In this document: in pieces, positions 19 to 27,400 of the stretch | How positions within the stretch are numbered: position 1 is the stretch's first letter | How the letters are laid out: each line of letters begins with the position of its first letter | DNA from: Craspedostauros australis | Lineage: Eukaryota | Reading direction: 5' to 3' | DNA: 45,783 bases | Assembly (NCBI GenBank): GCA_030167865.1 | Contig: JALAGF010004967.1 | Span: 1 to 45,783, forward strand | Position numbers and translations under genes: made by a program | Notes under the pieces: generated by a model | What the model was told of the DNA's origin: nothing | Seen by the model: the letters and a program-made list of their open reading frames with translations, nothing else | Database searches by the model: none

Positions 19-3000
19 AAACGACGACGCTTGTGGCTGTCCTGAACTCCTTGCATATTCGTCAGTACAACAAGTACTACGAGGAAGTAAAGCGCATTGC
101 AGCCATGCAGACTGGAAACCGCCAAGCAGCGTTGACGGTGGCCCGCAAGGCAAAACCCAGGCTACTGGTATGCGCTCCATCCAATGCCGCTGTTGATAAC
201 ATCATCCTCAAGATCATGGAGGATGGATTCGTGGACGGGAGCGGGAAACGGTACAACCCAAGCATGATTCGGGTGGGAGTTGGGAAATCACCAGCCGTCA
301 AGGATGTTGCCCTGGAAACCAAGGTGGACTCCATCCTTTCCGAACACATGGACGCGGGCCGGTTGGACTCCACGATCGCTGGCCTCCGCATGGAGCTGCA
401 GCGTATATCTGGCGACATTGCCAAATACAGACGCCGGATCCATGCGATCTCGCAGGCGTCACCCTGGCCACTTGCCAAGGACTGGGAAATCAGGATCGAC
501 GAGAAGACCTTCGATGAGACTGGCATGGTGTACTTCGTCAATCACAAGACGCAGATGACGACGTACGAATGCCCGCCGCCGCCGGAACCTGGCGAGAGGC
601 AATTCCCAGCAAGGGCCATGCCCGAGTACAAGTCGTACGTTGCCCGTATCGTCAAGTCCGTTGAGGGATACTTCAGCATTAAATCCAACCTGGAGCGCAC
701 TACAATCGTGAAGGGCACTTTGGACAGCGGCGCAAATCGCATTGCTGTCCGGCAGTCGCTAGAAAGCCATGTTCTCAACTCCGTTCACATGGTGATGACG
801 ACGCTCGGCACTGCGGGAAATCGGGTGCTTGAGGGCGTTGACAAGTTTGAGGTGGTGGTTGTGGACGAGGCGGCACAGAGCGTGGAGCCGGCAACGCTAT
901 CTGCATTGCAGTTGGGATCCCGGCATGCGGTACTCGTGGGAGATCCGCAGCAGCTGCCTGCCACAATCTTCAACGTCTCCGGACGAGGCTCGAAGTTTGA
1001 CAGGAGTTTATTCCAGAGGATGGAAGAGGCTGGGCAGGACGTGTTCATGCTGAATGAGCAGTACCGAATGCATCCGCAGATATCTCACTTTCCCCGTCAC
1101 ATCTTCTACGGTGGCACGCTGAAGGACGGCCCCAACGTCACCAAATCGACTTATGGGAATCCGTTGGTCAAGTCTGTATGCTCCCGCGTCCCAGCATTCA
1201 ATGTGAGTTGCTGATGGTTACTGATGGTTACTGATGGTTACGATGTTTACTGATCACGGCTCATTCGATCAATGATGAGCTGTTGCCGTTCCGTCCGATC
1301 TTGCCTGTGCCCAGTGTCGTGGCGACTCCGTCGATTATGCCGGCGATGCTCAAAGTTACGAATAGGACTCAGGAATGACCCAAATCCGACCAGAATCGAG
1401 AAGGTCTGAATGGAAGCAACCCACAGTATGCTGCAACCCAGTGCAATGCGATGCTCTACGTATGATGTATCATATCACTCACATGCTGAGATGCTGTACT
1501 ATACTCTGCCACTTCTTTTGCAGCCGTTCACCGTCCTTGATCTGGATTCCCGTGAGGAACGAGGCGGGACAAGTTTGGCAAATTCAACCGAGGCTCATCT
1601 AGCGGTCCATCTGTACACGTCTTTACGCGACATCACCAATGGCCTGTCTGCCAAGTCGCGCGTGGCCGTCATTACACCATACAGTCAGCAAGCGGGCTTG
1701 TTGAGGCGTGTCTTTCGCGATGCGTTGGGGAACCAGTGCGATCGATTGGTGGAGGTTAACACTGTCGATGCATTCCAAGGCAGAGAGGCCAACATTGTGA
1801 TCTTCTCCGCCGTCCGAGCAGCAGGCAGCCATGGCATTGGCTTCCTCAGCGATGTGCGGCGCATGAACGTGGCTCTAACCCGTGCGAAGCACTTTCTCTT
1901 CGTCATTGCGAGGTGCCAATCGATCGTTGTCAATCCATACTGGAGAGATCTGGTGGGGCATGCCAGAGAAACCAACGCAGTTGTCCGTGTTCCGATGAAG
2001 AACGGATCAAAGTTCAGCAAGGTCGATTTTGGTGCCATCACGCAATGGCAGGGAGAGAATCCGAAGCGAGTGGATCCTTTGGAACGCATCCAGTCGGTTC
2101 AACCATCTCGGGAGCGTGCAGTAGATCCACGGCGCCGAAAGGCAACCCAAGCGGCATCATCAGGTGTTGCGAGTGGAGGAAGTGTCAGCATCGAAATCCC
2201 ACCGCAGCAACAACAACAGTTGCCACCAAGTCGAACGTCGTCACAATCAGTCTCATCCTCTTCAGTTTTACAGCAACCACAGCCACGGCCACAGCCCCAA
2301 CTACAGCCCCACGTACAGCAGCACACACAGGTGAAAATGCAACCACAGCTCCAGCCGCAAACGCAAATCCAACACCAACACCAAACGCAGCCAATGTTGG
2401 ATACAAGGTCGCAACTGCCATTAATGTCGTTGCCACCGTCTATGCCACAAGCCACGGAACATATGAATCTGCAAGTTCAACCACAGCAACAACTGCAACC
2501 ACAATCGCAACCGCAACCGACACAAAACGAAATTCATCTCCAGGCACAAATGCAGCAGCAACAGCAGCAGCAACCGTTCCAATCGCAAGTACAATCGTCA
2601 ACGCACCAGCAACCAATGGTGCAGCAGCAGCAGCCGTTTCAGCCACATCCTCAGGCGCAGGCGCAGGTGCAGGTTCTGATGGGACAGCAGCAGCTTCAGA
2701 CACAAATGCAACAACCACAGATTCAACAACAATTCCAAGAGCAACCGCACTCGCAGATGCATCAACTTCAGGCACAGCAGCAGCCACAACAACACCAACA
2801 GCAGCAGCATTTTCAACCGCAGATGCAACCACAGGTGCAAGTGCAGATACAACAACCACAGATGCAGTTGCAACAACAATTCCAACCACAAATGCAGATG
2901 CAGCTGCAAATGCAGCAACCTCAGATGCAACAAGTGCAACCGCCGCAAGGGCAGATGCAACAACAAAGCATTCGCTCACAAGCGGCAGTGCCGATGAATG

Positions 3001-3560
3001 CAATGCCAATCGCTGGCGCAGTTGCAGTATTGCCCCCGCCACCCTCTGCAGCGACACACAGACAGCAGCAACTTCCGCCTCCTCCTCCGCCACCACCACC
3101 CTCCGCCGCCCAATATCCACAGCACCATATGCCATCACAACTCGGGCAACACACGTATCCAGGAGCAGCACATGGCACGCAGCACCCACCGGCAATGTAC
3201 CCAAACCAAGACTACAATCAGAACCCGAGTGAAGACCAATATCAGCATCAAACTCCGCACCACGTCCGCCGTGAACATGGTGTGTCACCACCCCCGCCAC
3301 CTCCTCCTCCGCCACCACAGATGCAGCAGCAGCAACATCAGGCGAATGCATATTCACAGCCCCATCATGGTTTTCAGCCTCCTCCCCCACCTCCACCGCC
3401 ACCGCCCCATCCGAGTACTTACAATCCCCACTCTGCCAATGCACAAAAGACAAGACCCAAATCGAAATGGAAAGGGAAACAGAAGCACAAAACCAAGAAC
3501 AAACAGAAGCAACGACAGAGTCAGAAGCAGAAACAACACATCCCTGGTCCATTTGGTTGA
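19..3560 (+). CDS. SEN1: Sen1/senataxin-like (UPF1-like SF1B) RNA/DNA helicase, 5'-truncated; exons 19-1202 and 1524-3560; WW domain in the core and Q/P-rich C-terminal tail
   Basis: SF1B motifs: (K)TTTLVAVLN (end of Walker A, directly after acceptor ttgcAG at 13-18), LVCAPSNAAVD, VVVDEAAQSVE, LVGDPQQLPAT, RSLFQR, LNEQYRMHPQI, VITPYSQQ, TVDAFQGRE, IGFLSDVRRMNVALTRAK. Removing intron 1203-1523 joins ...PAFN to PFTVLDL in frame. Confidence 0.85.
1203..1523 (+). other. Spliceosomal intron (phase 0, 321 nt) in helicase gene
   Basis: GTGAGT donor, pyrimidine tract and ttttgCAG acceptor; splicing restores a continuous helicase frame. Confidence 0.9.
1211..1254 (+). repeat. 10-bp tandem repeat (CTGATGGTTA)x3 plus a degenerate copy, intronic
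   Basis: Directly visible in the sequence. Confidence 0.9.
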
Positions 3561-6189: not shown

Positions 6190-7693
6190 ATGAAGTTCAC
6201 AACAGCATCCACCATGCTGGCGGTCGTGGCCGCTGCCTCCGGCACAGCCAGAGTCGCTGCCTTCATGGTCCGACCGCCATCCACACCGACATCGTCGTCC
6301 TTCGTGGCCAAGACGCACGGTATCCACAATGCCCTCCAAACCACGAACGCAGCTGCCTCCTCCACGGCTCTCCAGATGAACCTCTTCGACCGATTCTCGC
6401 GCGTTGCCAAGTCCAATCTCAACAACATCCTTCAGAACCTCGAGGATCCTGAAAAGATCATGAATCAGGCTGTCGAGGATATGCAGGTGCGTCTACGTTC
6501 ATGTTCATGTGCACGTTCATGTCCACCTGTGCTTCACACTATACCACCAATAATAGAATACATGGCAATATGTCCATCCGAGACGCATGACACTCGACAC
6601 TCACCCTCAGATCATTCATATCTCCCTTCTCCTTTTCATACTCGAATTTCCGTTCCCAAACAACATTGCAACAACATTGTAACAACAATATTCAATCACA
6701 TGATGACTCGTGCGCTGTCGGTTCATGTATCGATCACCGGCGCCACCAACGATCTTTGCGATATTCGATTATACGTTGAATACATTACATAATAAATGAC
6801 AACAACATCAACAACAATTGTTGGTCATGTCATCAAAATCAATGACATGCTCAACCCACCAATACTCAACCATCCACTGGATGTGTGCGACTACGACTAC
6901 GACCTCCGCGTCCACCACGCAATAATTTCAAAAACTATGCAATCCCTTGCCCCGTTCATTTATTCGATTCTTTGACTCTTTGACGCACCTCATGAATCCT
7001 CCATCACAGCAAGATCTCGTCAAGGTCCGACAATCTTACGCCGAGGTCACAGCCACGCAACGCCGTCTCCTCAAGCAGAAGGAACAGTCCGACGCCATGT
7101 CCAACGACTGGTACGAACGTGCGCAGCTCGCCCTCAAGTCGGGCAAGGAGGAACTGGCGCGCGAGGCCCTGAACCGTCGCCAGCAGTACGTGGACGAATC
7201 CGCCCAGCTGCAGGACCAGATCGACGGCCAGGCCGACAGCATCGACAAACTCTACGAGGGTATGCAAATGCTCGAGGCGAAGATCCTGGAGGCGAAATCC
7301 AAGAAGGAGCAGATGGTGGCGCGTGCACGCACGGCACAGACCACGCAGAAGGTTAACGACATGCTCAGCGGCGTCACTGGCAAGTCCAGCATGGACGCCT
7401 TCAACCGCATGGAGGACAAGGTCGCCTCCCTGGAGGCATCCGCGGAAATTTCCGCCGAGATGGGGGCCATCGGCGGCAACGCACTGCCAGGCACCGCAGC
7501 ATCATCCATCGAGAACGAATTCAAAAAGCTCGAAGCCTCCAGCGCCGTCGATGACGAACTGAACAAGCTCAAGGGGCTCATCGGCGGATCCAGCGACGCG
7601 GACGCCAAGTCGTCAGCATCGAAGCCGCCGTCGTCCGCAAACAAGGCGTTGGATGATGAATTTGAAAAGCTCAAGAAGGACGCTGGTCTGTAA
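6190..7693 (+). CDS. VIPP1: Plastid VIPP1/IM30 (PspA/ESCRT-III superfamily), about 326 aa; exons 6190-6486 and 7010-7693
   Basis: Signal peptide ending VAA|FMVRP (ASAFAP-like), S/T-rich transit peptide, mature start MNLFDRFSRVAKSNLNNILQNLEDPEKIMNQAVEDMQ; WYERAQLAL...EELAREAL; SSMDAFNRMEDKV; VIPP1-type extra C-terminal helix LDDEFEKLKKDA. Confidence 0.95.
6487..7009 (+). other. Spliceosomal intron (phase 0, 523 nt) in VIPP1
   Basis: CAG|GTGCGT donor and catcaCAG acceptor; joins EDMQ to QDLVKVRQ in frame. Confidence 0.9.
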
Positions 7694-8462: not shown

Positions 8463-11400
8463 TCATGGACGGACATGCTGATCCGCTGGAGTATGCGAGG
8501 CGGGCGCGACAGCCGTCTTCCGTGCCTTCTGGAGCTTCTCCTGACGCACCGCGTTCTTTTGCGCGCTGCGGGCCTTCACTTCACGGTAGAAGTCTTCGTA
8601 CTTACGCAGCGCTGCTGCCTTCTTGCGGCTCTGTTCCTTCTCCGCTTTCAGGTCATTCTTCAGCTTTCGTATCAGCTGCTCCTGGCGCTGGACCTGTTCC
8701 TTCGCCGCCATACCCGTCATGTAATCGCTGGTCAGCACCAGGTTGTCACTGGTTGGCTTGTTTCGAGATATGGCCTTGCTCTCTGTACCTGCGCTTGCTT
8801 CGTGAGTCTTGGACTGCGGGTCGCCGTCCGATCCATCCTCCTTCACAGTTGATACCACTGCTGCTGCTGCTGCCTGTTTTCTGTACTTCTCCAACGATTT
8901 GGATAGCACTGCGAATCGGTTCGTGAACTCTGCCTTGAATCGTTTCATCTGCTCTTTCGCTGCCTTGGCTTCGGCCCGTGCCGACTGCGCATCCTCCACT
9001 TGGCGCATGAGCGTAGCGTTCTCATCGCCCAACGTTTTCAAAGCGTCCATCAATCTGAGGACTTGCTTCGTCGTGGAGGCATCTGACGCCATTGTGCTGT
9101 TGCCGGCGGTGTTGGTAGCGTTCATTCCGGCTGATGCTGATGTGTGGTGACCACCCACTAAAATAGCCCCGGACCCTGCGGTACCTGCACGGCTGCCAAT
9201 GGATAGAACGGAGTTGGCCAACACTTGCGAAGCTGCCATGGTCATGCTGCCAGGCGGCGGGCCTCCCCACCAGCTCGATTCTAATCCGTCTGTCCTTGCC
9301 GCGCTGTCCATCTGAGACGATGACCGGGCATCCACGCCATCCGCGGCAATCGATGGCGACTTGACCGACTGCTGCTGGGTTTGTGTCGCAGCACTGTGGT
9401 GCTGATGAGACGCATTGGCATTGGAATGCGAGCCCGCTGCGTGCTGCTGCTGTTGCTGATGGAGCCCTGCGAGATTTGAGTTGCTGTTGTTGCCAATCGC
9501 ACCCGTGCTCAGCACACGGCTTGTGGTCAGGTTCTGCAATCGGTTTGCGCGCGCGCGAACACCGGCGCTTCTGCTGCCCGCGACCTGGGTTGGTTGCGCC
9601 ATGCCATTGCGTCCGTAGGCACCTACGCCTGGTCCCATAGTGGATACGGCCCTCTGACCAGGCTGTGCCGATGAGATGGGCGCCATGTGAATGGAGGACG
9701 ACCCTCCCCACATGGCGGAGGAAGACATGTAGGACTGGGAACCTGGCGTGACGACCATGAAGCTGCCATCGATAGTGGTGTTCTTCGATAGCTTGTTGCT
9801 GCCGGCGTTGCCCCCAGTTCCCAACGCGGCATGGGCCTGATTGGCATACTGCATGCGAGTGTCCAAAGATGAGATGGACTGGCCGAGTCCCAGGGTCATG
9901 TCCATGTCTCGGAGTTCCTGTTCTAGTTCCATCATCTGATCAATGGGGTTTTGACCTGCCGCTCCTGCACCACTTCCGTTCCGAGCTTCGTTGGCAAGAT
10001 TGTCCGGCGACACCCCGCCGGGGATCAGGGATCCTTTGGAAGGCCTTCTGTTGCCGCTGGTGAAAGTAGATGATGACTTGCCTGTTCCTGGGACGGTTGG
10101 AGATGACGCGGACGGCGACGGCGAGGATGACGCCCTGCCCAAGAACATGGACTCTGAGATATCTTCCTCTCTGGGATGACCCGACCCCAGAGCCCCTCGG
10201 ACCACCGCCCGGAGACGTTCTTCCTTGGTTACTGTACCATCAGTGGATGTTGTCGGGTTCCCCAAAGGTATTGAGTTGGCGTCTGAAGGTCCAGCAGCAT
10301 TGGATCTCGCCGCGGATGTAGAAGATGGTGCAGCGCGAGATGAGGAAGCCGGTCCATTTGCATTGGTGTTAGCGCTCGATCCTGATTGGCGTGTTGCCGA
10401 TGTAGATGCGTTGGCCTTTGATGCGGCGCTGCTATTTGATTTGGACGATGACGATGGTGTTGAGGAGATGAGACGTTCGATCCCAGCTGTGTTGAGCCTC
10501 ATAATGCGCTTCAGGGCGATGGCCGACTTGGCTTGGGTTTGGCTGAGGAGGAGCAATGAATTGGAAAGCTGCGGGTTGATCGTCTGAACTCCAACGGCGC
10601 AGTCGCGATACAGCTTGGCAGATTTGGCATGTTGCGACAAGGCTGAGGGGTTGGTATCGTTGTTAGTATCGTTGTTGCGATGGCGGTTGTGGTGATTGTA
10701 TGGACGGACGCGCATGCGGGTGCATCATAGGTGCGGTGCGCACGGGCGAGCGAACGAGTGTGAGTGTGAATGTACATACGTACAGATGTTGAAGGAAGTG
10801 AGGTTTGAGTTGCACTGAGCGATTGAGTACATGTGTTTCAAACATCCGGCACGAAGGAGAAAATTCGTGGAGTGTACTCGTATGGCCATGGTGCTCTTTG
10901 TGGAATGCGTGATGAGCAACACGATGAGTATGTATGACATGCAACGATGGCGACAAGCTGTACAGAACGGAACTCACCCTCTCCCAACTGCCCATTCTGC
11001 TTGGCTTCCGTGGCTTGCAGAGAGGCTGAGCTGGCATCCTGCAGGTTTTGGGTGAGCACACTGTTATGAGTGTTGCTGCCGCTGCCGCTGCTGCGCTTGT
11101 GGGGATCCGATTGCGAATTTTGAGACACCGCATTGCTTAGGAGCAGGGCCAGGACATCTCCACGGTTGGTGTCCCCAGTTGCGCCTTCGTGGATGGCACT
11201 TTGGAATGCCGTGGCCCGACCGTACTCGTAGTCTTCGTCGTCGTCGATGTTGAGGTGGTCAGGTTCCGCATCCACAAAGACGTCAAATGAAGCGTGGTCG
11301 ACGGTGTCATGAACTCCAATGTCCGCGATGAAACCTGGCGGATTGTTGGCGATGGACGTCGCGAAGGCAGTCGGCGCAGGCTTCGGAGGCATGGCTCTGA

Positions 11401-12085
11401 CAGAAGGCATCCCAGGTCCCATCGCACGGTTCGTGGGATGGGAGACATGGGTCTGGTACTGACGAGGAGGACGTGGTATTCCAGCGGCCTGGCCGTGCGG
11501 TTGTTGTGCCGTGTGGGTTGTGTGTGTGGTCTGAGCTGATGGTGCTGTGGGGATGTCGATGTAGGCAAAGTCTGCGTCGACAAATGCCGCATCCGAGATG
11601 ATGGGATGCTGCTGCTGTTGATGCTGCTGTTGATGCTGCTGTTGACGTTGGTGTTGCTGACGAGGATGACTTGGATGGTGATGATGATGCTGCTGCTGTG
11701 AGCCATGAATATATGACGGAGGCACTTGCGGCGTCATGTGGACATTTGTGGGAATACCCACAATCGGAACCTGTGGATGATGTCCATTGGAACTCGCAGG
11801 TGCTGTATGAGTACGAGTCCCCGCACTCGCATTCGCACCATGCTGATGGGACTGATGCTGCTGCTCATGCTGCCCGCCGACGTAGATGGGGATGAGATCC
11901 ACATCCGAATCGATGAAGCTGCCTTGCGAGGATGCGGTCACGAGGCTGCTGCTAGCGCTTACGGCGTCATCGAGCACGTTGTCTCCGTTGATGTTGCCAG
12001 GGATGTTGCTTTGCACGTTGCTTGCGTTGGTCGCAGCAGGTAGACCATCATTGGGATCTTCCGTGACGGCGAATGGCAGCTCCAT
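8463..12085 (-). CDS. MIT-like domain + coiled-coil protein, about 1095 aa, putatively Atg38/NRBF2-like; exons 12085-10978 and 10642-8463
   Basis: Splicing rebuilds a three-helix MIT-like segment NLQDASSASLQATEAKQNGQLGE|ALSQHAKSAKLYRDCA...LSNSLLLLSQTQAKSA; C-terminal coiled coil KQVLRLMDALKTLGDENATLMRQVE; AIM/LIR-like DGSFMVV; the remainder is low complexity. Confidence 0.65.
10643..10977 (-). other. Spliceosomal intron (phase 1, 335 nt)
   Basis: Minus-strand G|GTGAGT donor at 10977 and ccctCAG acceptor ending at 10643; G+CC gives Ala and joins ORFs 10838-12088 and 8463-10715 in frame. Confidence 0.85.
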
Positions 12086-13207: not shown

Positions 13208-15745
13208 CTACGAGGACCTCCTGTTGCTGCTGTTGCCTTTGTTGTTTTTGCTGCCGCTGTTGCCACTGCTGCTGTTGCCTCCATTGCCATTCTCATCATC
13301 GATTGTCTCCATGTGGATGGCATGGTACAGCTCCTTGGACACGTTCACGAATTCGCTCATGTAGGCCAGCTGCCCCTTCAGCGATTCGTGCAGAATGTCG
13401 CGCCCGATCTTCTCCACGACCACGATGCACGGCAGGTTGTTCGTGGTGCGGATCACCTGCGCCGTGATCAGGCGGTACCGTCCGCTCAGCTTGCGCAGGA
13501 TGCGAGTCATCTGCAACCCGCGCAGCACCAGCATCACGATGCGTCCGCCGTCCTTCAGGCAGTACCATGCAGTGCGCAGGAAGATCTCGTACAGCTGCTG
13601 CAGGTCGCTGACGCCCTGCTTGTTGCCCGTCATCACACCCCATGGCAGGTTCGAGACGAAGGCGTCGGCGGAGCTGTCGGGTACGTACCGTCGCAGGGCG
13701 CGGGCGTCGCAGCAATGGATCTCGCAGATGTCGTTGGAGCAGTTCTCAGCCTCGGCATTCTGCCGCGCGCCCCTGGCGCTCTTTCGTGACACGTCCATGC
13801 CGATGCAGCGGATCCTACGCTGCGTCATCTCCAGCGCCTCCAGCAGCAACGTCCCCGATCCGCAGAATGGGTCCACCATCAGCTTGTCCTTGCTGTTGCC
13901 GTCGATGCCCGCAAGCCGGATGAGGACGTACGCGATGTTGCACTTGATGGTGACGCCGTTGCGGAAGCGCACGAAATGCCGCTTGGAGATGTCGTCCACG
14001 TTCAGCTGCTGTCCGATGAGCACCTTCGTGGAGACGATGTCGGCGCGGATGTTCACGTTGTAGTTCTTCATCTGCGGTTTGCACGAAGATTCGTAGTACT
14101 CGGACATGGCGCCGCCGATCTCGCGTTCCACCTGATCGCTGCGGAAGGCGTGGGGGCCGCCGACGCGCTCGCAGGACACGCGGAAGCCGAGTCGCTTTTG
14201 TTTTCCGTCGCCGTCGTTGTTCGGAGCATCTCCAAATGCCGATACTGATGTGGACGCCGATGCTCGTGGTATTGTGGCAGAGTCGCGATGGTGCAATGCG
14301 GGGATGCTGCCCTTGCCATCCACCAGACGTTGCTTGTAGTATTCGTAGAGGTCTTCCGCAGTGAGGGTGGAAATGCCATCTCGTTTCGTGACTGGAGTGG
14401 TCGTCGTCATCGTCGCCGCGGCTGCTTGATCGGGACCATTGGTGCCATCCGCTGCGTCCTTCGTCACGAGATCGCGCATATCAAAATGGTCCTGGTAGAG
14501 GAGCACTTGCATCGCTGATCGCAACTCCATGAGTTGCTTTTGAATTGCATCCATCATTTCATCCAATGTTACATCTGTACTTTTGGGTGTTGGCGTTGAT
14601 GTTTTTGAAGTCGGTGCATACTCCAACCCAGCGTACCCAGCAATGCCCCATGGGCAAGCAACCGGTCGCCAAGAAGACGAGTATCCATGAGCATCATCAT
14701 GAGTATCATTATCATCATCATTGGTGCTGCCATCGCGGTCCATCATGGACAACATCTCAGTCAACTCATTGGCCAGGTAGTGCTCTGTTCCGATGTTGCA
14801 GGATATCACGAATTTAACATCCGGGTTGGCCTCGTTGCAGAATGTCGTGGGCATGTGATCACCGAACAACACCGCAGCGCTGCTGGTGGACGACGCCTCC
14901 AAGGGACCGTTGGTGTTGATGCAGATGGACGTGCCGGGCGTGTAGTGGTAGAAATCTTCCTCCTGCGCACCGTCTGCGCCGTTGGTCTTTTTGATGCGCT
15001 CCAACCACTTATCGCGACGCTCGTGTTCTTCCTCGCCCTGCGTGTTGGCCTCGTCCTTTCGTTTGCAGCGGAAGGTGAGATTGATGCGGCCTTGCGTGAT
15101 GGCGCTCTGCCTGGGTATAGAATGCAGGTAATCGTGCTGGCACTGATTCTCCATGATGACGAGGGATCCCGATTCCAACGCGATCGTCGCACGATCACGT
15201 CCCGCGTTTTGCTTGGAACGGATTTGGAAGTCGCGCGTTGCGCCCAAGGAGAGGCTCGCAATTGGGGTGGTGCGACCGATCTCTTCGCGGTCCGTGTGCC
15301 ATCCGATGCGCTGATTGCCGTCTTCATAGAAATTCAGCAAGCAGACGTTGAATTGGACAGGAGACTTGGTGATGCCAGCGCTACTGCCAGCGCTATCACC
15401 GGCATCCGCTTGTGAGTTGTGCGAGTTGTACCAATCCTCGATGCGCGTCTTGATGGTTCGCACAGTATCTGTGAATGGGTTGTGATGTATTGGTACTTGC
15501 TGCTGCTGCTGCTGCTGATCAGCCTGCCGCTCGGATGCATCCGGCAAGGAGCTCGGAGCATCGCGGTACTTGTAGTCGCTGGGCGTCTCCTCCATGAGGT
15601 ACACCCACCGATTGATCTTCCCAGAGGTCTCCCATCCAGTTGTCTTGTACAGCTCATCGTACAGCTGCTGCGATTCTTCGCCAGTGAAGAGGTTGGGGTA
15701 GTAGAACACGCATTCCTGCTCCAGTGGAACAGCGTACTCCTTCAT
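13208..15745 (-). CDS. Fusion protein, about 845 aa: N-terminal AlkB-family Fe(II)/2OG dioxygenase (ALKBH2/3-type) + THUMP RNA-binding domain + SAM-dependent RNA amino-methyltransferase (UPF0020; Trm14/TrmN/THUMPD2-3-like)
   Basis: AlkB: FNVCLLNFYEDGNQRIGWHTD (HxD at 15290-15298), IASLSLGATRDF, LESGSLVIM...YLHSIP, RINLTFR. THUMP (about 14003-14185): FRVSCERVGGPHAFRSDQVEREIGG...NYNVNIRADI. MTase: DPFCGSGTLLLEA, GMDVS, CDARAL, VSNLPWG. One uninterrupted ORF; first ATG at 15745. Confidence 0.9.
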   Translation of the reverse strand: MKEYAVPLEQECVFYYPNLFTGEESQQLYDELYKTTGWETSGKINRWVYLMEETPSDYKYRDAPSSLPDASERQADQQQQQQQVPIHHNPFTDTVRTIKTRIEDWYNSHNSQADAGDSAGSSAGITKSPVQFNVCLLNFYEDGNQRIGWHTDREEIGRTTPIASLSLGATRDFQIRSKQNAGRDRATIALESGSLVIMENQCQHDYLHSIPRQSAITQGRINLTFRCKRKDEANTQGEEEHERRDKWLERIKKTNGADGAQEEDFYHYTPGTSICINTNGPLEASSTSSAAVLFGDHMPTTFCNEANPDVKFVISCNIGTEHYLANELTEMLSMMDRDGSTNDDDNDTHDDAHGYSSSWRPVACPWGIAGYAGLEYAPTSKTSTPTPKSTDVTLDEMMDAIQKQLMELRSAMQVLLYQDHFDMRDLVTKDAADGTNGPDQAAAATMTTTTPVTKRDGISTLTAEDLYEYYKQRLVDGKGSIPALHHRDSATIPRASASTSVSAFGDAPNNDGDGKQKRLGFRVSCERVGGPHAFRSDQVEREIGGAMSEYYESSCKPQMKNYNVNIRADIVSTKVLIGQQLNVDDISKRHFVRFRNGVTIKCNIAYVLIRLAGIDGNSKDKLMVDPFCGSGTLLLEALEMTQRRIRCIGMDVSRKSARGARQNAEAENCSNDICEIHCCDARALRRYVPDSSADAFVSNLPWGVMTGNKQGVSDLQQLYEIFLRTAWYCLKDGGRIVMLVLRGLQMTRILRKLSGRYRLITAQVIRTTNNLPCIVVVEKIGRDILHESLKGQLAYMSEFVNVSKELYHAIHMETIDDENGNGGNSSSGNSGSKNNKGNSSNRRSS

Positions 15746-17430: not shown

Positions 17431-20118
17431 ATGATGAACGCGAGCGACAGCAGCAGCAGTGGAAACGATGGCGAGAGCTGCGATGCATCCAGCTGTCTAT
17501 CCATATCTCACGACAACAGCAACATTAGGAGTGGCAACAACAACTTCATGGAGTCACATTCTCAACACAATAAACACGTCCATCGCGGTCAATACGACCA
17601 ATACGGTCAATACGATGAGGAGCAAGGCAATGGCCACGTTGATGGCCAAGGCACGGATGAACACTCAAGCAGCAGCATCGATGAGGATGGAGAAGCGAGC
17701 GTTGCAAGCGTTGAGTCCGTCGAGAGCCATTCCTCCTGCGCTTCATTTGCGTCTCATTCCTCATCCCTGACTTCATCCTCAGCCTCCCTTCCATCTCAGA
17801 AGCCATCACCGCCTACGTCTCAGTCTCAGATGCTGTCTCATCCACTGTCTCGGTCTGCGAACGTGCTCGGCAACCCATCGTTGCATCTTGATGCTGATGG
17901 ACGTTCATACCAACATGAGCAACAACATGAGCATCATCACGGGCACCAGCACCAATACCAACATGTCCGTCGCAGCTCCTACTCGAACAAGTGCGCAGGA
18001 TCAGTCCCTGGCTCAGTCTCCGGATCCGTTGCTTCCACAGCAGCATCATCTGGTGCATCATCTGGAAGATCATCTCTGTCGGCAGCCTCGTCTCACTCGC
18101 GCACCCGCCCTCGGCCTTCCGTTGGATTGTCCCGTCTGTCGTCTCACAGGAGGTTCGCTGAGACGCTTCCTCTTCAGGTTGGTACGAGTACAGCTGGTGG
18201 TGCCCACATCAAGGGCAATGCTAACATCAATGCCAACGTGAAGAGCAACGGCAACGGCAATGCAAAGAACCAGCAGCCACAACATTCCCAACAACAAACA
18301 CCTCTGTACAAGCACTTCCGCCGCATCCCGCTGTCGACCATCATCCTCTTCCTCATGCTCCTGCACACCAAGTATCAGGAGTCTCAGATGGTCTTCCGGG
18401 CGATGGAGCATTGTCCATGCTCTCGTGTTCAGTCTCATCTGTCACCGATGCCGTCGCATGCCAATCAAACTCAGATTCAAGAACACCAACAAAATGCGCA
18501 TCAACAAAAGAAGAGCAGACTTGAACGTCAAGAGAACAAGGATAGCATGATGCCCGTTAATGACCCACCTCAGATCGAACGCCTCAGAGGGTCCCTCGTG
18601 CAGCACTTCCTTGCGTTGGAACGGGAGCTCCGCATGGCGCAGCGCAACAACCAGACCGCCAATACGTACATGCTCTCCAGTCCCATCTTGCGTAATGCCA
18701 ACATCACCGATATTCTGACGCATCAGCAAAGGCAGCAAGGCAACAGTAACAGCAACAACAACAAGGATAAGACGAAGATCACTGGAACAGCCTCGCGTCT
18801 TCAAAGCATTGATCCGTCCATGCTCACGCTGGATCCCTACGGCTTCTACGTCTCTCGGCATCTGCCCAATGCATACGTCGCGAATCGGCAGGGTGTGCAA
18901 GGTTCTCCTTGCTCCCAGGCACAGCAGCGGGTATCGGCGCAGAATGAGAATCCATCGGATCGCAACGGAAGTCAGGACAGCCAGGTCACACTGCTCACAC
19001 ATGTTTCCACCGACAAGCTGCAGCGTCTCCAGCTACAGCTGAAATGGTGGAACGGGCCGGCCTCAGTCGCCGTCTACATCCGAGACATCAAGGATATTGA
19101 CACCCTCGTCAACTTTCTCTCGAAGGAGTATCGTACGGAACATGTCAGCACTACGAGCAGCAGCAACACTGGTGACAAGAACGGCCAGGGCAATGATGGC
19201 GGAGATACCATTGCGTTCCACATCTACATGGAGGTCACGCCTCACGAGGAGAAGGAAAATCCTGGAGCGTCATCAAAGACTGCGACAACTGCACAGCCAT
19301 CCCGAGGTCTCAACAAGAAAACACCATCTCAGCGCAAGGTGCTGCCATATCCGCACAACCAGCTGCGCAACCTGGCCATGGAGACCTTGTCCGACGACAC
19401 CTTCTTCGTGGCAATAGATGTCGACTTCGTTCCGTCCTGGGACTCCCATTCCGAAATCCAGCGTCTTCTGTCCCTGCCATCGCATCAGCAAACATCCTCC
19501 AATGGCATTCGTCACGAGCTCGTGCACAATCGGCGCCTCTTCGTCCTGCCAGCATTTTCGATGCAGCACAAACCGAGTGCCACACAGGAAGCATCATCGC
19601 AGCAAGCCGAGGATGATGATTCTTCCTTTCCCAAAACACGCCAGGACCTCCTCGTCAAGGTACATCGCCATGAAGCGGAAATGTTCCGCAAACAGAAGTT
19701 CCCAGCCGGTCATGCACCGACTGACTTTGACAAGTGGTTGGCCTGGGACGTCAACACCGGAACCAGCAGCAGCAGCAGCAGCAATAACAACAACGACAAT
19801 GGCTGGTATCCCATCGAATACGCGGAATCCTTCGAACCGTACGTCCTGGGCTACTACACGCACAACAAGCCCTCAATTCCACGATACCGCACCGAATTCC
19901 GCGGGTACGGCAAGAACAAGCTGACGTGGATCATGGAGATGCACCGCAACGGTTACTCCTTCGGCGTCCTGCCCACCGTTTGGGCCGTGCACATGGACCA
20001 CCCCGTCAGCAACCAGGACGACCGCCGCAACGAGTTGGATTTCAACAAGTTCATCCTCTATCCGCAGTTCTTGCGGTACTTGGATGACACGTACGGCAGA
20101 TACAGGGCAGAGCAATGA
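17431..20118 (+). CDS. GT49 (LARGE/B4GAT1 glucuronyltransferase-like) type II membrane glycosyltransferase, about 895 aa
   Basis: TM IPLSTIILFLMLL; VTLLTHVSTDKLQRL..WNGPASVAVY; YPHNQLRNLA; FVAIDVDFVPS (DxD); LFVLPAF; FEPYVL; PRYRTEFRGYGKNK; GYSFGVLP...VHMDH. Confidence 0.85.
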   Translation: MMNASDSSSSGNDGESCDASSCLSISHDNSNIRSGNNNFMESHSQHNKHVHRGQYDQYGQYDEEQGNGHVDGQGTDEHSSSSIDEDGEASVASVESVESHSSCASFASHSSSLTSSSASLPSQKPSPPTSQSQMLSHPLSRSANVLGNPSLHLDADGRSYQHEQQHEHHHGHQHQYQHVRRSSYSNKCAGSVPGSVSGSVASTAASSGASSGRSSLSAASSHSRTRPRPSVGLSRLSSHRRFAETLPLQVGTSTAGGAHIKGNANINANVKSNGNGNAKNQQPQHSQQQTPLYKHFRRIPLSTIILFLMLLHTKYQESQMVFRAMEHCPCSRVQSHLSPMPSHANQTQIQEHQQNAHQQKKSRLERQENKDSMMPVNDPPQIERLRGSLVQHFLALERELRMAQRNNQTANTYMLSSPILRNANITDILTHQQRQQGNSNSNNNKDKTKITGTASRLQSIDPSMLTLDPYGFYVSRHLPNAYVANRQGVQGSPCSQAQQRVSAQNENPSDRNGSQDSQVTLLTHVSTDKLQRLQLQLKWWNGPASVAVYIRDIKDIDTLVNFLSKEYRTEHVSTTSSSNTGDKNGQGNDGGDTIAFHIYMEVTPHEEKENPGASSKTATTAQPSRGLNKKTPSQRKVLPYPHNQLRNLAMETLSDDTFFVAIDVDFVPSWDSHSEIQRLLSLPSHQQTSSNGIRHELVHNRRLFVLPAFSMQHKPSATQEASSQQAEDDDSSFPKTRQDLLVKVHRHEAEMFRKQKFPAGHAPTDFDKWLAWDVNTGTSSSSSSNNNNDNGWYPIEYAESFEPYVLGYYTHNKPSIPRYRTEFRGYGKNKLTWIMEMHRNGYSFGVLPTVWAVHMDHPVSNQDDRRNELDFNKFILYPQFLRYLDDTYGRYRAEQ

Positions 20119-20580: not shown

Positions 20581-22494
20581 TCAGCCGCCGATGAGCGTCA
20601 TGGGTCTGTTCTCGCTGGAATGATCGGAGATGTCCTGCATGTCATGGTGGCCGCCGAGCTTGAAGTGCTTGCGCTGCACGGCGGCATGGACGACCTTGGC
20701 CAGCAGATCCGGACGCTGGATTCGGAGGATGTCGCGCAGGCTGATCTCCGTGGCTCCAAAGAGGCAGACCTTGAGCTGGCCATCCGCGGTCATGCGCAGT
20801 CGGTTGCAGGTTCCGCAGAAGTGGGACGACATGGACGTGATGAATCCGATGCGTCCTTGCCGTGTGTTGCGTGGTTGCGGTTGTTGCTGCTGTGCTGCTG
20901 CATGGTGGACGGAGCGTGAATCATGATCCAGATGTTGATCAGCGAGGTTGACGAGATCGACGGGATTGTAGGACCACCACTTCGTGGTGTCATTGGGTCC
21001 ATCCTGGAGCCTCTGCAGGGCGTGTCCCGTGCTGGGCTGCTGGTCTTGAAATATGTCCTGCATATCCTGGTAAGAAATGAAATCGTTGGTACCCCATCGA
21101 TTGTCGTTGAAGGGCATGTACTCGATGAATCGAATATCGATGCCTAGCTGGTTGGAGAGATGCGCGAATTGCGGCAGCTCGTGCACGTTGTCCTTCATGA
21201 CGACGCAGTTGATCTTTGTGTGCAGGTGCGGCGCTTGGTCGGCGCAGTCCTGGATGGCCTGCCAGACCCTGTGGAAGTATGACTCTGGACGTCGCGTGAG
21301 CGTGGCGAACAGGTGCGGTTGCAGGCTGTCGAGACTGACGTTGATGTGGGTGACGCCGGCATCTATGAGACCCGGGAGGTGCTTGGACAGGGTGACGCCA
21401 TTGGTGGTGATTCCAATTTCTGTGATCTTGTCCTTGTGCCTCTCGGATATTTGCGAGATGAGCGAGACGATGTCCTTGCGCAGGAGGGGTTCGCCGCCCG
21501 TGAATCTGAGCTTGGTGACGCCGCCGACAGTGACGAACCAGTCGACGAGTTGGATGATTTCGTTGTTGGAGAGCAGGTGCTCTGGCGGTTGCAAGGGGAC
21601 GCCGTCCTCCGGCATGCAGTACAGGCATCTGAGGTTGCATTTCTCGCTCAATGAAATGCGCAGGTAAGAGTGCTGACGTCCGAAGGTGTCCTGCAGCACG
21701 GCATTGGCAGGGGCGTCCGCATGTGACTGATGCAGTTTGGTTTGCGATGGATCTGGCAGTGCCTCCAGCTGACGGATCCATTCCTCCTGTACCGTGATGG
21801 GTGCGTTGCCCATCATGATGTTATCTGCAGACGATTGTTCGTCAATTTTCGTTTGCGTTTGCGCTTGAGTTTGCGCTTGCATTTGCTGTTGGACGGATTG
21901 AATGGATGGAATCGGTGGCAATTTGGAGAGCAATTTGCGTGGTTGCGCTGCTGGTTTTGCTGAGGGCTGTGCTGAAGAATTGGAAGGAGCAGAGGATGGT
22001 GACGAAGAAGAGACGGTTGGCGCACTCCCCCTCCTCTGATCCTCAATCCTGAGCTGTTGCCGCAGAGCTTCCAGCCTGGATTGCTTCGCTTGGCTCTGTC
22101 CGTTGCTCTTGATTGCGTCGCTGCTCACATCTGTCGCTCGCCTGCCCTGGCTCGCATCATTTGCGTGATCGAAGTGCCGCTCGATGTGCACAATGGGCTT
22201 GACATTTGCCAGTCTCTTCTGTCCCTTGCGTCCATTCTGCCTGTCCAATCCATTGTCAGCAGCGTCAACGTGAGCATGTTCGTCGTCATCGTCATCACTT
22301 GCAAAGGCCACCGCAGAAGACGAGAGACCTCTCTTTGACCTCGCAGAGCGGGTGGAGAAGGAGACGATGGCGCGTCGTAGATGAGGCTGCGTCAGTCGGC
22401 CATGCCTCGAGGTAACGCGTGAACGCCGTTGCAGCTGCTGCGGCATGCGAGGCTGCCATTGTGCAGATGCCGAGACGATAATCCGGCGGAACAT
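20581..22494 (-). CDS. CNX2: GTP 3',8-cyclase (molybdenum cofactor biosynthesis radical SAM enzyme, MoaA/CNX2/MOCS1A) with a probable mitochondrial presequence
   Basis: DTFGRQHSYLRISLSEKCNLRCLYCMP (CxxxCxxC), FTGGEPLLR, ITTNG, RFIEYMPF, FCGTCNRLRMTADGQLKVCLF (second Fe-S cluster), terminal RPMTLIGG; Arg/Ser-rich N-terminus. Confidence 0.96.
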   Translation of the reverse strand: MFRRIIVSASAQWQPRMPQQLQRRSRVTSRHGRLTQPHLRRAIVSFSTRSARSKRGLSSSAVAFASDDDDDEHAHVDAADNGLDRQNGRKGQKRLANVKPIVHIERHFDHANDASQGRRATDVSSDAIKSNGQSQAKQSRLEALRQQLRIEDQRRGSAPTVSSSSPSSAPSNSSAQPSAKPAAQPRKLLSKLPPIPSIQSVQQQMQAQTQAQTQTKIDEQSSADNIMMGNAPITVQEEWIRQLEALPDPSQTKLHQSHADAPANAVLQDTFGRQHSYLRISLSEKCNLRCLYCMPEDGVPLQPPEHLLSNNEIIQLVDWFVTVGGVTKLRFTGGEPLLRKDIVSLISQISERHKDKITEIGITTNGVTLSKHLPGLIDAGVTHINVSLDSLQPHLFATLTRRPESYFHRVWQAIQDCADQAPHLHTKINCVVMKDNVHELPQFAHLSNQLGIDIRFIEYMPFNDNRWGTNDFISYQDMQDIFQDQQPSTGHALQRLQDGPNDTTKWWSYNPVDLVNLADQHLDHDSRSVHHAAAQQQQPQPRNTRQGRIGFITSMSSHFCGTCNRLRMTADGQLKVCLFGATEISLRDILRIQRPDLLAKVVHAAVQRKHFKLGGHHDMQDISDHSSENRPMTLIGG

Positions 22495-24459: not shown

Positions 24460-27400
24460 ATGCCCATCGTCGACGTCGCAACGAGAGACGCAAGACATAC
24501 CAATACAGCAGCAGCAGCAGAAGCAACAGCAGCAGCAACCCATTCGCACACCTCAACGAGCATCATCAACCACACAGGTCAGGTTCACACTCGTCCGCAT
24601 GCTCCTGCTCATGCCAACTTGCGTGCCAACTCATACGAGAACAGCAATCTTGGGAGCCACAGCAACGAACCCCATGCCCAGTTCCTCAAGACCCAAGTCG
24701 GCCTGAACCAAAGGGCGAAGCACAGAAGCAACAGAGGCCACAGCATCAGCCGAAGTCCCAGTCGAAGTCGAAGTCCCAGCCGCAATCAGAATCGCATTCA
24801 GAATCAAAGCAGCAGTCAGGGGCATCGAAAGACGGAACGGCTGCAATCATCCAACGCGGAGGCCAAATCTATTGCAGCTCAGGAGACTGCTGCTGGCGCT
24901 GCTGTTGCTGCTGCTGTTGGAATCGGTACCAAAGGCGCAGACTTGGACATTCATGCTTGGGGAGGAACAGATGATCACAGCGATCCTCATCACGATCTTC
25001 ATCACGATCCTCATCACGAGCTGCACAAACATATGGACCTCGTCAACAACAGCTCATTCTCCACGGCCAGCCTCACCACCGCAATGACGAGCTCAAGGAC
25101 GGTCGTCTCCACCAGATCCACCTCTCCTGGATCGCCCACATCCAACGCAACCAATGCCCTCCATGTCGCTGCGCAAACCGTGGGAAGCGTCAGGGAAGGC
25201 AACGACGAAGCCGATCATGATGCCTCCCTTGTCTCCCTCCTCTCCAACAACCAAAGCTGGACGGGACAGCCTTCCCCTGTGCGAACGACTGCGCCCAAAC
25301 CGCCAACCCGCGTCTTGACCACCTCCTTTGCGCATATCAAAGATGGGGCGCCGTCTGCTCTCACGATGTCGGTCGTCGAAACGCAAACACCGCATGCCCC
25401 TGACTATGACTATGTCTACAAGCCATCTCGTCAGCGTCAACGTCAACGTCAACAAACACCATCCACAGAGTCGACAGCATCAACGCCATCAACAGTGTCA
25501 ATGCCCGCTGACGAACTCGAAGCAACAGCCAATGTCACAGATGCCATGGACGCAAATCAAACATCGGATGAGGAATCTTATCAGATCGGAGACAGCGATG
25601 ATTCCATCTCCCTCTCTTCTTCCTCTTCCTCCAAGCGCAAACGAAAGCGTGAGCGCGCAAACATGAACGCAAACAGATCGCGTACATCCAGCAACGCCTC
25701 CAGTTATGATGCGGATGTGGACGCGGACGCAGACACCAACGATGGTGTTGCCAGCACCTCCTCTTCCAACTCTGCACGCGACTTCAACGCTCCGCAACAT
25801 CACTATCCGCACTCGCAATCGGATCACCTGCCATACCACAGCGCAAGCGCAACCAACAACATACAAATGAACATGAATCACAGCCATTCCAGCTCCGGCA
25901 CGCAACCAACTTTCAACACTTCGGCATCGCATCCAAACTCACACCACCAACAGCGACAATCGCATGCGACAGCGCCGATAGAACGTTCCGATCATCATGC
26001 GAGACCCAGAGGCAGATCGCGTACCAACACAAACGGATCCACAACCTATGACACAAACAGCCATCAGCATGGACATCCACATGGACATCCACATCCACAT
26101 GGACAACCACGGGATGCATTCGCGCTCTCCAACTCCAACGTCCACGCTCATGCCCACACCCACGCCTACACCACCCGCATACACTCCTCGGCCTCCACAG
26201 ATTCATCCTTCCTCTCCACCGGAGGCAGCAGCACAACCACGGCCACCACCACCAACCGCACTCGCCCGCATCGCAATGGTTCCGGCATCAGCATCAGCAT
26301 GGAAAGCACCACGGACGACAGCACGGAGTCCACCATCGCGCCTCTCCGTTCCTCCTGCTTCCATCGAGCCTCCGTCTCCTCGGATGCATCCACAGTCAAC
26401 CAGCACAACCGCAGTGAGAAGTACCGCTCCATGATACGACCAACCCACAGCCACGACTCGTCAGCCCTCACCTCCAACACATCGCAATTCGACAACGATC
26501 ACGTTTACAACGCCCACAATCCGCACATGCACGGCAACCCCAACAACCAGCATCTCGATCCAAAGTCATCCCCCTCCTGGAAATGGCAGCACTGCATCCA
26601 GAATCAGTACTGGGAGGAACTCGAAACCCTCCTCCAAACATACAACCCCAAACATCATCCCACGGAACATCAGCATTGCAAGCAGACCCTGGTCAAAAAG
26701 AAGCCAAAGAAGCGCAAGCGACGTCAGCTGCGCGTCACCAAGTACTTCCAGAACATGTTCCAAAGGAAGGGCAGCATCGATGCGGACGACAACAACAGCA
26801 GCAACAGCAACAATAACAACGATCGCAATAACAGCAATCAGGATGATGGCAAACCACGTGCTGCTGTTGCTGCTGCTGCTTCTTCTGCGAATACTCACAC
26901 TGGCCTTGCCAACAGAGATCTCAGCCTCGATGACGATGGCAGACCAATCATCTCCACCCTCACCCATGACCTGGAGAGCGACGATGAGGGCATCTCCATG
27001 AACACAAACGCAAACACGACCACGACGACCAACACCGCGACGACCAAGTCATCCAGATTGTGGAGGCACAAATCGAAGAACAAATCAAAGGACCTCCCAT
27101 CCTCCCCCCTTCTCTGCGTCGACCCGCAAACGGGACGCACACCTCTGCACTGGGCCTGCTGGGAACGTGTTCCCAACAAGATCGTTCAAAAGATGCTCTT
27201 CGTTGCGCGTCTCGCTGCATCCACCAAGGACAACCAGCATTCCTACCCTTTGCATCTGGCAGTCCAAGCGGGACGTCGCAACCTCGATCTCCTCGACAAG
27301 CTCATCAAGGCGTATCCACCAGCTTCCTGGCAACCAGACGGGCAGGGCAAGACACCCTTGCTCTGGGCCATCGACGATGCCATCTACAACTTCGACGGTC

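Follow-up and report, generated by a model that had tools for sequence, protein, structure and literature searches.

The 45,783-nucleotide stretch of DNA analyzed here (the window; contig JALAGF010004967.1 of the Craspedostauros australis assembly GCA_030167865.1) contains, at positions 13208-15745 of the minus strand, a gene for an AlkB-type Fe(II)/2-oxoglutarate dioxygenase fused to a THUMP domain-containing RNA methyltransferase. The source of this gene is the nuclear genome of a pennate diatom. The open reading frame (ORF) list of the window gives an uninterrupted frame of 845 amino acids (aa) with no stop in the translation, which bears out the single intronless ORF reported in a preliminary description made from the DNA letters; the strand is added here. 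The start codon appears to be correctly assigned, as the N-terminus MKEYAVPLE lines up with the N-termini of homologs in an alignment of 30 sequences. Domains were called with Pfam at the gathering cut-offs, and the equivalog models of NCBIfam were checked as well. The AlphaFold model of the fusion protein, obtained with 30 homologs as input (mean predicted local distance difference test score, pLDDT, 77.5; predicted template modeling score, pTM, 0.61), consists of confidently folded blocks (aa 1-230, 309-433, 455-487, 515-782 and 784-811) and low-confidence stretches (aa 68-84, 251-289, 434-454, 488-511 and 813-845).

The N-terminal part (aa 14-226) matches the profile 2OG-FeII_Oxy_2 (PF13532) with an E-value of 1.8e-33 (116.9 bits, with the cut-off at 31.2). 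The iron ligands are H150, D152 and H208, in a stretch that reads H150-T-D152...H208, and the 2-oxoglutarate-binding residues are N138, Y140, R220 and R226, the latter two in the stretch R220-INLTF-R226. A variable poly-Q insert is located within the domain, at about aa 66-92. The model of aa 2-230 adopts the AlkB-type double-stranded beta-helix fold and superposes on human ABH2 (PDB entry 3bty) with a Z score of 24.0 and a root mean square deviation (rmsd) of 2.0 over 182 of 200 residues, and on ALKBH3 (8jnk) with a Z score of 22.7 over 182 of 203 residues. A profile search against PDB sequences identifies ALKBH3 (E-value 1.1e-26), ALKBH2 (5.8e-21) and Escherichia coli AlkB (1.5e-6), and matches none of the chains of ALKBH1, ALKBH5, ALKBH6, ALKBH7, ALKBH8 or FTO at E<=1e-3. 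Judged by sequence, the AlkB half belongs to the ALKBH2/ALKBH3 group, in agreement with the type named in the preliminary description, with one signature difference: the HxDDE signature of ALKBH2/3, which appears as HsDDE in ALKBH3 and HrDD in ALKBH2 in the alignments, is absent and [WY]HxDREE is found instead in 117 of the 121 family members. The diatom domain shares with ALKBH3 and ALKBH2 the fold (Z 22-24, rmsd 2.0-2.3), the iron triad and the RxxxxxR stretch, the identity being about 26-31% when the proteins are aligned by structure, but differs in reading HxD-R-EE rather than HxD-D-E, in the variable low-complexity insert held by its nucleotide-recognition lid and in being fused to an RNA methyltransferase.

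The C-terminal part is a THUMP-containing methyltransferase of the UPF0020 family, as proposed in the preliminary description. Pfam detects UPF0020 (PF01170) at aa 594-752 with an E-value of 9.9e-24 (84.6 bits, with the cut-off at 22.3), and the sequence profile search identifies TrmN (E-values of 1.6e-33 and, for the entry 3tma, 8.6e-20) and Trm14 (2.7e-25). The model of aa 309-781 superposes on the entire Pyrococcus Trm14 (3tm5_B; Z 30.9, rmsd 3.1, 358 of 368 residues) and on the entire Thermus TrmN (3tma; Z 29.4, all 332 residues), both from their residue 1 onward; Foldseek agrees, with E-values of 3e-24 and 1e-21, respectively. Trm11, the G10 enzyme, fits worse (Z 23.4, rmsd 7.1, on a model of mean pLDDT 77.5). 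The likeness to the enzymes that produce N2-methylguanosine (m2G) at positions 6, 7 and 67 of tRNA (Trm14, TrmN and THUMPD3-TRMT112) hence extends over the whole NFLD-THUMP-Rossmann unit (NFLD stands for an N-terminal ferredoxin-like domain; Z 29-31 over 332-358 residues) and includes motif I, DPFCGSGT, and a motif IV of the NPPY type. In the diatom protein, motif I (D625-PFCGSGT), D651, D680 and motif IV (N699-LPWG) are present, so that all four motifs quoted earlier, namely HTD...H, RINLTFR, DPFCGSG and NLPWG, are found in the protein; motif I in the form DPFCG[SGA]GT is conserved in 117 and the motif IV variant N[LMV]PWG in 113 of the 121 family members. Compared with Trm14, TrmN and THUMPD3, the diatom protein adds the N-terminal AlkB domain, a conserved helical segment, a tether and C-terminal helices, differs in motif IV and scores below the NCBIfam equivalog cut-offs. 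Architecture and motifs place this half in the Trm14/TrmN/THUMPD family, although it is not an equivalog of archaeal Trm14.

The two halves are joined by regions of unequal conservation (Table 1). The segment directly after the AlkB domain (43.7% mean pairwise identity over aa 231-254) forms helices at aa 236-245 and 247-254 (pLDDT about 60-73); T235, G237, E238 and H241 are invariant and R244 is conserved in at least 90% of the 30 aligned sequences, and this segment is possibly a docking or capping helix. It is followed by the tether, with pLDDT below 50 over aa 251-289 and a mean pairwise identity of 19.9%. The linker had been placed at about 14200-15060 in the preliminary description; most of that stretch is, however, the NFLD, which carries lineage-specific disordered inserts at aa 434-454 and 488-511, and the actual tether is confined to about aa 255-308. 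The C-terminal helices (aa 784-796 and 804-811 in the model) show 54.5% identity at 100% occupancy, and the matches to the two closest unfused eukaryotic proteins (P0384 and P0386) run through them, up to query residues 812-821. The tail is unconserved (17.7% identity, 42% occupancy).

Table 1. Features of the fusion gene and annotated neighbors in the window
Feature	Positions	Strand	Basis or remarks
Whole gene, AlkB-NFLD-THUMP-methyltransferase fusion (P0001)	13208-15745	minus	single exon, 845 codons plus stop
AlkB Fe(II)/2-oxoglutarate dioxygenase domain, aa 1-230	15056-15745	minus	Pfam PF13532, structure, invariant residues
Conserved helical segment directly after the AlkB domain, aa 236-254	14984-15040	minus	alignment, model
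Flexible tether, aa 255-308	14822-14983	minus	low pLDDT, poor conservation, variable length
NFLD of the Trm14/TrmN-type module, aa 309-514	14204-14821	minus	structural alignment, model
THUMP RNA-binding domain, aa 515-595	13961-14203	minus	Pfam PF02926, NCBIfam, structure; 56.8% mean pairwise identity
Rossmann-fold S-adenosylmethionine (SAM)-dependent methyltransferase (UPF0020/RMKL-like), aa 596-782	13400-13960	minus	Pfam PF01170, TrmN 3tma, invariant residues
Conserved C-terminal helices (QLAY..FVNVS.E.Y.AIH), aa 783-812	13310-13399	minus	model, alignment
Disordered N/G/S-rich low-complexity tail, aa 813-845, and stop codon	13208-13309	minus	pLDDT below 50
PspA/IM30 (VIPP1-like) protein	6992-7693	plus	
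GT49 glycosyltransferase	17431-20118	plus	
MoaA-type radical-SAM molybdenum-cofactor enzyme	20581-22494	minus	
Glyco_trans_1_2 protein	38988-40571	minus	

A search of 5.8 billion proteins retrieves 149 relatives of the fusion protein at E<=1e-3, 120 of which are listed. The pairing of PF13532 and PF01170 recurs in 117 of these 120; the three exceptions are proteins of about 490 aa encoded on contigs of 1.6-2.2 kb. Among the matches listed, all relatives with a named organism come from diatoms, centric or pennate (Fistulifera, Seminavis, Skeletonema, Thalassiosira, Cylindrotheca, Nitzschia, Pseudo-nitzschia, Cyclostephanos and Amphora), and at least five are ORFs from MMETSP transcriptomes marked 'type:complete'. 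In 30 of 30 full-length proteins, H150, D152, H208, N138, Y140, R220 and R226 of the AlkB half are invariant, as are D625-PFCG, G631, D680, N699, P701, W702 and G703 of the methyltransferase half. The presence of the fusion in related species, its appearance as single complete ORFs in the transcriptomes of other diatoms and the invariance of the catalytic residues speak against three doubts raised in the preliminary description, namely that the fusion could be missing from related species, as an assembly artifact would be, that transcripts could show two separate mRNAs, and that one of the domains could be inactive. The mean pairwise identity is 67.6% in the AlkB core and 64.9% in the methyltransferase, and from these values both catalytic cores appear to be under equal constraint. 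A divergent sub-clade (P0106, P0109, P0110 and P0118) consists of full-length fusions that are 35-39% identical to the window protein and includes a sequence from the transcriptome of the dinoflagellate Gymnodinium smaydae, which may mean that the fusion is not confined to diatoms or may represent prey or contaminant RNA.

An exhaustive search of 1.84 billion representative sequences yields a handful of full-length fusions, followed by unfused relatives of each half. The closest unfused relatives of the methyltransferase are proteins of 420-690 aa that are 35-44% identical to it; those with named sources come from choanoflagellates (Didymoeca, Diaphanoeca and a cluster containing Barroeca) and the cryptophyte Guillardia. 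In a maximum likelihood tree of 48 methyltransferase sequences, with which quick trees agree, all 13 fusion proteins fall into a single clade (support 100/99) that is the sister group of an unfused choanoflagellate trio (99/90). These proteins lie inside a eukaryote-type group, which is separated by a branch with 100/100 support from TrmN-like proteins of 330-400 aa, among which there is one from a Bacteroidota metagenome-assembled genome (MAG). Inside the fusion clade, the window protein groups with those of the raphid pennates Fistulifera and Seminavis. Eleven unfused proteins cluster with the fusions in the tree, and in 9 of them motif IV reads NPPWG, NLPWG or NVPWG. Bacterial TrmN proteins (P0239, P0245 and P0249; 32-36% identity) were considered as the nearest relatives and rejected, the unfused eukaryote-type proteins being closer in the wider search and in the trees. 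Given that there is a single fusion clade within the eukaryote-type group, the phylogeny indicates a single fusion event that started from a THUMP methyltransferase of the eukaryote type.

The stand-alone relatives of the AlkB half include proteins of about 200 aa with HxDDE or HGDTHC signatures, and the AlkB of Balamuthia carries HxDREE. A tree of AlkB domains, constructed by a quick method from 37 rows that passed filters from a larger set and containing several long branches, places the AlkB domains of another class of fusions, with BMT5-like methyltransferases, near the diatom family but is otherwise poorly resolved. A bacterial origin of the fusion, or a bacterial gene neighborhood as its precursor, was also considered and rejected. 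All 28 bacterial loci examined match just query residues 80-236, and a tblastn search of these loci with aa 246-845 produces one chance-level match (E-value 0.23). No THUMP methyltransferase is found within 3 kb of the AlkB relative at any of the 28 loci, in a scan that relied on AlkB peptide patterns and that fusions with divergent AlkB motifs could escape. Among these loci, HxDREE occurs in one only (L019, from a Terriglobales MAG), in a 449-aa ORF (L019:2686-4035, plus strand) that apparently contains a tandem pair of AlkB-like halves, with WHQDREE in the first of them.

A known protein of comparable design is ALKBH8 of animals and plants, which acts on the wobble uridine of tRNA and combines an RNA recognition motif (RRM), an AlkB domain and a Trm9-type methyltransferase that has TRMT112 as partner. 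Like the diatom fusion, ALKBH8 unites in a single polypeptide an AlkB domain and, C-terminal to it, a SAM-dependent RNA methyltransferase; it acts on tRNA, as the diatom protein is predicted to do. The differences are that the diatom AlkB domain resembles ALKBH3 and ALKBH2, with no ALKBH8 chain detected at E<=1e-3; that the diatom methyltransferase is of the UPF0020 family with NFLD and THUMP, Pfam detecting neither an RRM nor a Trm9-type domain; and that the expected chemistry is demethylation plus m2G formation rather than formation of 5-methoxycarbonylmethyluridine followed by hydroxylation. The diatom fusion is thus similar to ALKBH8 in its logic but lies outside the ALKBH8 family, in line with the distinction drawn in the preliminary description. 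Part of PMC8708615 places human ALKBH8, THUMPD2, THUMPD3 and TRMT11 all in the TRMT112 partner network.

Further fusions of this kind were detected among the relatives. Four proteins (P0397, P0399, P0440 and P0449), from Amoebophrya sp., a parasitic alveolate (transcriptome; one protein), and from metagenomes, combine an N-terminal BMT5-like domain (PF10354, a family of rRNA 3-methyluridine methyltransferases) with an AlkB domain that is 34-55% identical to that of the window protein and belongs to a neighboring clade. Compared with the diatom fusion, the order is reversed, the methyltransferase belongs to another family, and three of the four proteins have HxDFEE, with Phe where the diatom family has Arg. 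These observations suggest that RNA base methyltransferases became linked to this AlkB clade on more than one occasion. We know of no description of the BMT5-like fusions, at which no search was aimed. In the replicase polyproteins of plant flexiviruses, an AlkB domain with a presumed role in RNA repair is located beside a methyltransferase domain, and papers on capilloviruses and carlaviruses mention both; in contrast to the diatom protein, the viral methyltransferase is a capping enzyme in a replicase context, with neither THUMP nor a role in cellular tRNA. The other relatives include proteins that combine DUF4326 with AlkB (P0450, 795 aa), a RING finger with a THUMP-type UPF0020 methyltransferase (P0398, 682 aa), and a tRNA U5-methyltransferase-like domain with THUMP and UPF0020 in double methyltransferases (P0436 and P0481).

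The preliminary description had left undecided whether this architecture is undescribed. Full-text searches, which did not extend to subscription-only journals, identify no paper that describes an AlkB-THUMP-UPF0020 protein; automatic annotation, on the other hand, already names both functions, JGI names of homologs including 'tRNA G10 N-methylase Trm11/alkylated DNA repair dioxygenase AlkB', whereas NCBI names cover the AlkB half only (e.g., 'mRNA N1-methyladenine demethylase'). A paper on microalgal writers and erasers that also covers a diatom (PMC11312118) contains none of the terms THUMP, ALKBH2, ALKBH3, UPF0020, fused or fusion. In the pertinent passage of PMC3265494 (Mielecki et al. 2012), an 'ALKBH12' subfamily of fungi and diatoms is delineated inside the ALKBH2/3 group and its domain architecture is not discussed, and the passage of PMC4738411 (Iyer et al. 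2016) on AlkBH3 lists fusions to PHD, SAD/SRA and AT-hook domains and does not mention THUMP. Already seen by automatic annotation, the architecture has apparently never been studied. A natural fusion of an ALKBH3-like with a THUMPD3-like enzyme is notable and readily testable, though both its components and its overall logic are familiar.

With respect to function, we consider it somewhat more probable than the alternatives taken together that the fusion is a bifunctional tRNA enzyme, in which a writer of m2G at position 6 or 7 is combined with a tethered eraser of the 1-methyladenosine (m1A)/3-methylcytidine (m3C) type that acts on the same bound tRNA. The analysis establishes the architecture, its conservation, the intact catalytic residues, the folds and the single origin, whereas we infer the tRNA substrate, the position 6/7, the m1A/m3C specificity and any coupling of the two activities. 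The two mechanisms put forward in the preliminary description, a coupling of repair with methylation and methylation followed by oxidation to a new base, are hypotheses. Two working catalytic modules would be held in one polypeptide by a tether that is flexible and some 55 residues long. By analogy with its homologs, the C-terminal part of about 470 residues, a complete Trm14/TrmN/THUMPD3-type enzyme, would bind tRNA, with the THUMP domain gripping the 3' CCA end, and the short distance between THUMP and the active site would bring G6 or G7, both in the acceptor stem, into the SAM pocket for conversion to m2G. This analogy draws on a review (PMC9957541, Hori 2023), part of which states that THUMP captures the 3' CCA end of tRNA, that the distance between THUMP and the methyltransferase domain determines whether G6 or G10 is modified, and that Trm14, TrmN and THUMPD3-TRMT112 produce m2G6/7 (for THUMPD3-TRMT112, see also the corresponding part of PMC8599901). 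Positions 6/7 are proposed because Trm14 fits the model better than Trm11 does (rmsd 3.1 versus 7.1). The AlkB domain, moving on its tether, would reach the same bound tRNA and oxidatively strip N-methyl groups of the m1A/m3C type, which would amount either to repair of chemical methyl damage or to erasure of regulated marks; ALKBH3 has been reported to demethylate m1A and m3C in tRNA (PMC6411830, in part).

R153, the Arg directly after the HxD of the AlkB half, was considered as a specificity switch matching D135 of E. coli AlkB and rejected, as the register between the two proteins (locus L029; H131/H150, D133/D152, K134/R153, D135/E154) aligns R153 with K134 and E154 with D135. The base-contacting acid is therefore kept, as an invariant Glu, E154, and Glu is found at the same position in ALKBH2/3. 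In E. coli AlkB, according to part of PMC7968990, D135 adjoins N6 of m1A, and the D135S/T/R variants gain activity on 1-methylguanosine. The retained acid thus leans towards ordinary m1A/m3C-type substrates, rather than guanine adducts or new chemistry.

Several observations weigh against the bifunctional tRNA enzyme. The AlkB half reaches only 38.5 bits with the NCBIfam model TIGR00568 (equivalog cut-off 231), and the methyltransferase half 88.1 bits with Trm14_Arch (cut-off 280) and 76.4 with Trm14_Thcoccales (cut-off 480); with the thresholds this distant, the fusion is not orthologous to archaeal Trm14 or to bacterial AlkB and may have a different specificity. The metal-binding Asp is followed by Arg (R153) where ALKBH2/3 have Asp, and motif IV, N-L-P-W-G, departs from NPP[YFW]G of unfused relatives. 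The THUMP domain (aa 520-577) scores exactly at the Pfam cut-off (20.6 bits, E-value 6e-4), next to a sub-threshold partial match of Trm14_Arch at aa 520-638; this weak match is backed by the structural alignment over the whole of Trm14 and TrmN. Language-model feature scores are nearly equal for THUMPD3 clusters (0.98) and THUMPD2 clusters (0.97), the THUMPD2 label in this search being 'U6 snRNA (guanine-N(2))-methyltransferase' and bacterial entries also scoring 0.97. With so long a disordered tether, the RNA bound to THUMP is not necessarily the one on which the AlkB domain acts. Finally, the function is predicted from sequence and modeled structure, for the homologs as well as for the window protein.

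Among the rival explanations, a target other than tRNA, such as a small nuclear or another structured RNA, by analogy to THUMPD2 acting on U6 snRNA, with the AlkB domain repairing or editing that RNA, is unlikely, though the least so. The closeness of the THUMPD2 and THUMPD3 feature scores speaks for such a target, as does the fact that the AlkB domain opens the protein, with nothing N-terminal of it; THUMP proteins also act on RNAs besides tRNA, according to part of PMC9957541. The best structural and sequence matches, however, cover the whole of Trm14 and of TrmN, both of which are tRNA m2G6 enzymes. The neighboring-clade AlkB domains of the independent BMT5-like fusions suggest a general writer-plus-AlkB logic, and in ALKBH8 the product of the attached methyltransferase is the substrate of the AlkB domain. 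Following this precedent, the diatom AlkB domain might oxidize the methyl group of m2G, yielding a new hydroxymethyl- or formylguanosine or removing the mark, and the removal would constitute a built-in writer-eraser cycle tuned by iron, oxygen or 2-oxoglutarate. An engineered E. coli AlkB can demethylate N2,N2-dimethylguanosine (PMC7968990, in part). Nevertheless, we regard this sequential chemistry as rather improbable: the AlkB half belongs to the ALKBH2/3 group and not to the ALKBH8 group, the acid aligned with D135 is kept as E154 whereas activity of E. coli AlkB on guanine adducts needed a change of D135 (same source and scope), and the constitutive presence of the writer and the eraser of one mark would create a futile cycle unless regulated.

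It is decidedly improbable that DNA repair in the manner of ALKBH2/3 is the main role of the protein, with the THUMP-methyltransferase part as a nucleic acid-binding or regulatory appendage. ALKBH3 is an oxidative m1A/m3C demethylase of ssDNA, RNA and tRNA, and ALKBH2 one of dsDNA. ALKBH2 and ALKBH3 repair m1A and m3C in DNA, as stated in the titles of PDB entries, and NCBI names homologs 'DNA-N1-methyladenine dioxygenase' and 'alkB homolog 3'; but the SAM-binding and catalytic motifs of the methyltransferase are invariant and the domain is conserved like the AlkB core, which would be unexpected for a mere appendage, and THUMP is an RNA 3'-end binding module (PMC9957541, in part). An artifact, be it an assembly chimera or a chance read-through of two adjacent genes, is scarcely credible. 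The window contains one open frame without a stop, the same architecture comes from independent genomes and transcriptomes in nearly all listed relatives, and the fusion proteins are monophyletic in the methyltransferase tree. Because the fusion is kept in relatives, the key residues are invariant and the halves are equally conserved, a chimera, a two-gene read-through and a decayed domain are all very unlikely. The bifunctional tRNA enzyme remains the preferred explanation. A more far-reaching reading, to which we give little credence, is a self-contained tRNA writer-eraser switch, in which the AlkB domain would reverse or further oxidize marks on the THUMP-held tRNA, possibly including its own m2G. 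If so, methylation of the acceptor stem in diatoms would report iron, oxygen or carbon status, and the fusion would, together with the BMT5-like fusions, represent a general 'methyltransferase + AlkB' class for RNA-mark editing or proofreading.

The surroundings of the gene are ordinary eukaryotic nuclear genes (50-59% G+C) with no evident link to the fusion (Table 1). Two ORFs of the plus strand, 105-1214 and 1410-3560, encode two halves of a superfamily 1 helicase core, with AAA_11 and the start of AAA_12 in the first and the rest of AAA_12 in the second, and probably belong to the same gene, divided by a short intron or a change of frame. A frame of 3426 codons (24460-34740, plus strand) shows, as its sole Pfam signal, a weak ankyrin repeat match (E-value 6e-6, just under the gathering score). 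Apart from the low-complexity stretches within the fusion gene, at 15500-15550 and 13208-13309 (minus strand), the neighboring ORF at 10838-12085 is Q/H-rich.

To our knowledge, natural fusions of a nucleic acid demethylase with an RNA methyltransferase are rare, ALKBH8 being the one studied case. The study of ALKBH8 revealed a two-step tRNA modification pathway. Much of the primary production of the ocean is due to diatoms, which are often limited by iron, the cofactor of AlkB. The fusion joins an ALKBH3-like eraser or repair enzyme to a Trm14/THUMPD3-like m2G writer, with the active sites intact across diatoms. It offers a handle on how RNA demethylases of the AlkB type find their substrates, given that THUMP could deliver the tRNA, and on the purpose of m2G6 in the acceptor stem, the mechanistic role of which is stated in part of PMC8599901 to be still a matter for investigation. 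Repair of methyl damage in tRNA by the AlkB half would make the protein an enzyme dedicated to tRNA repair, whereas action on physiological marks would make it a built-in writer-eraser pair.

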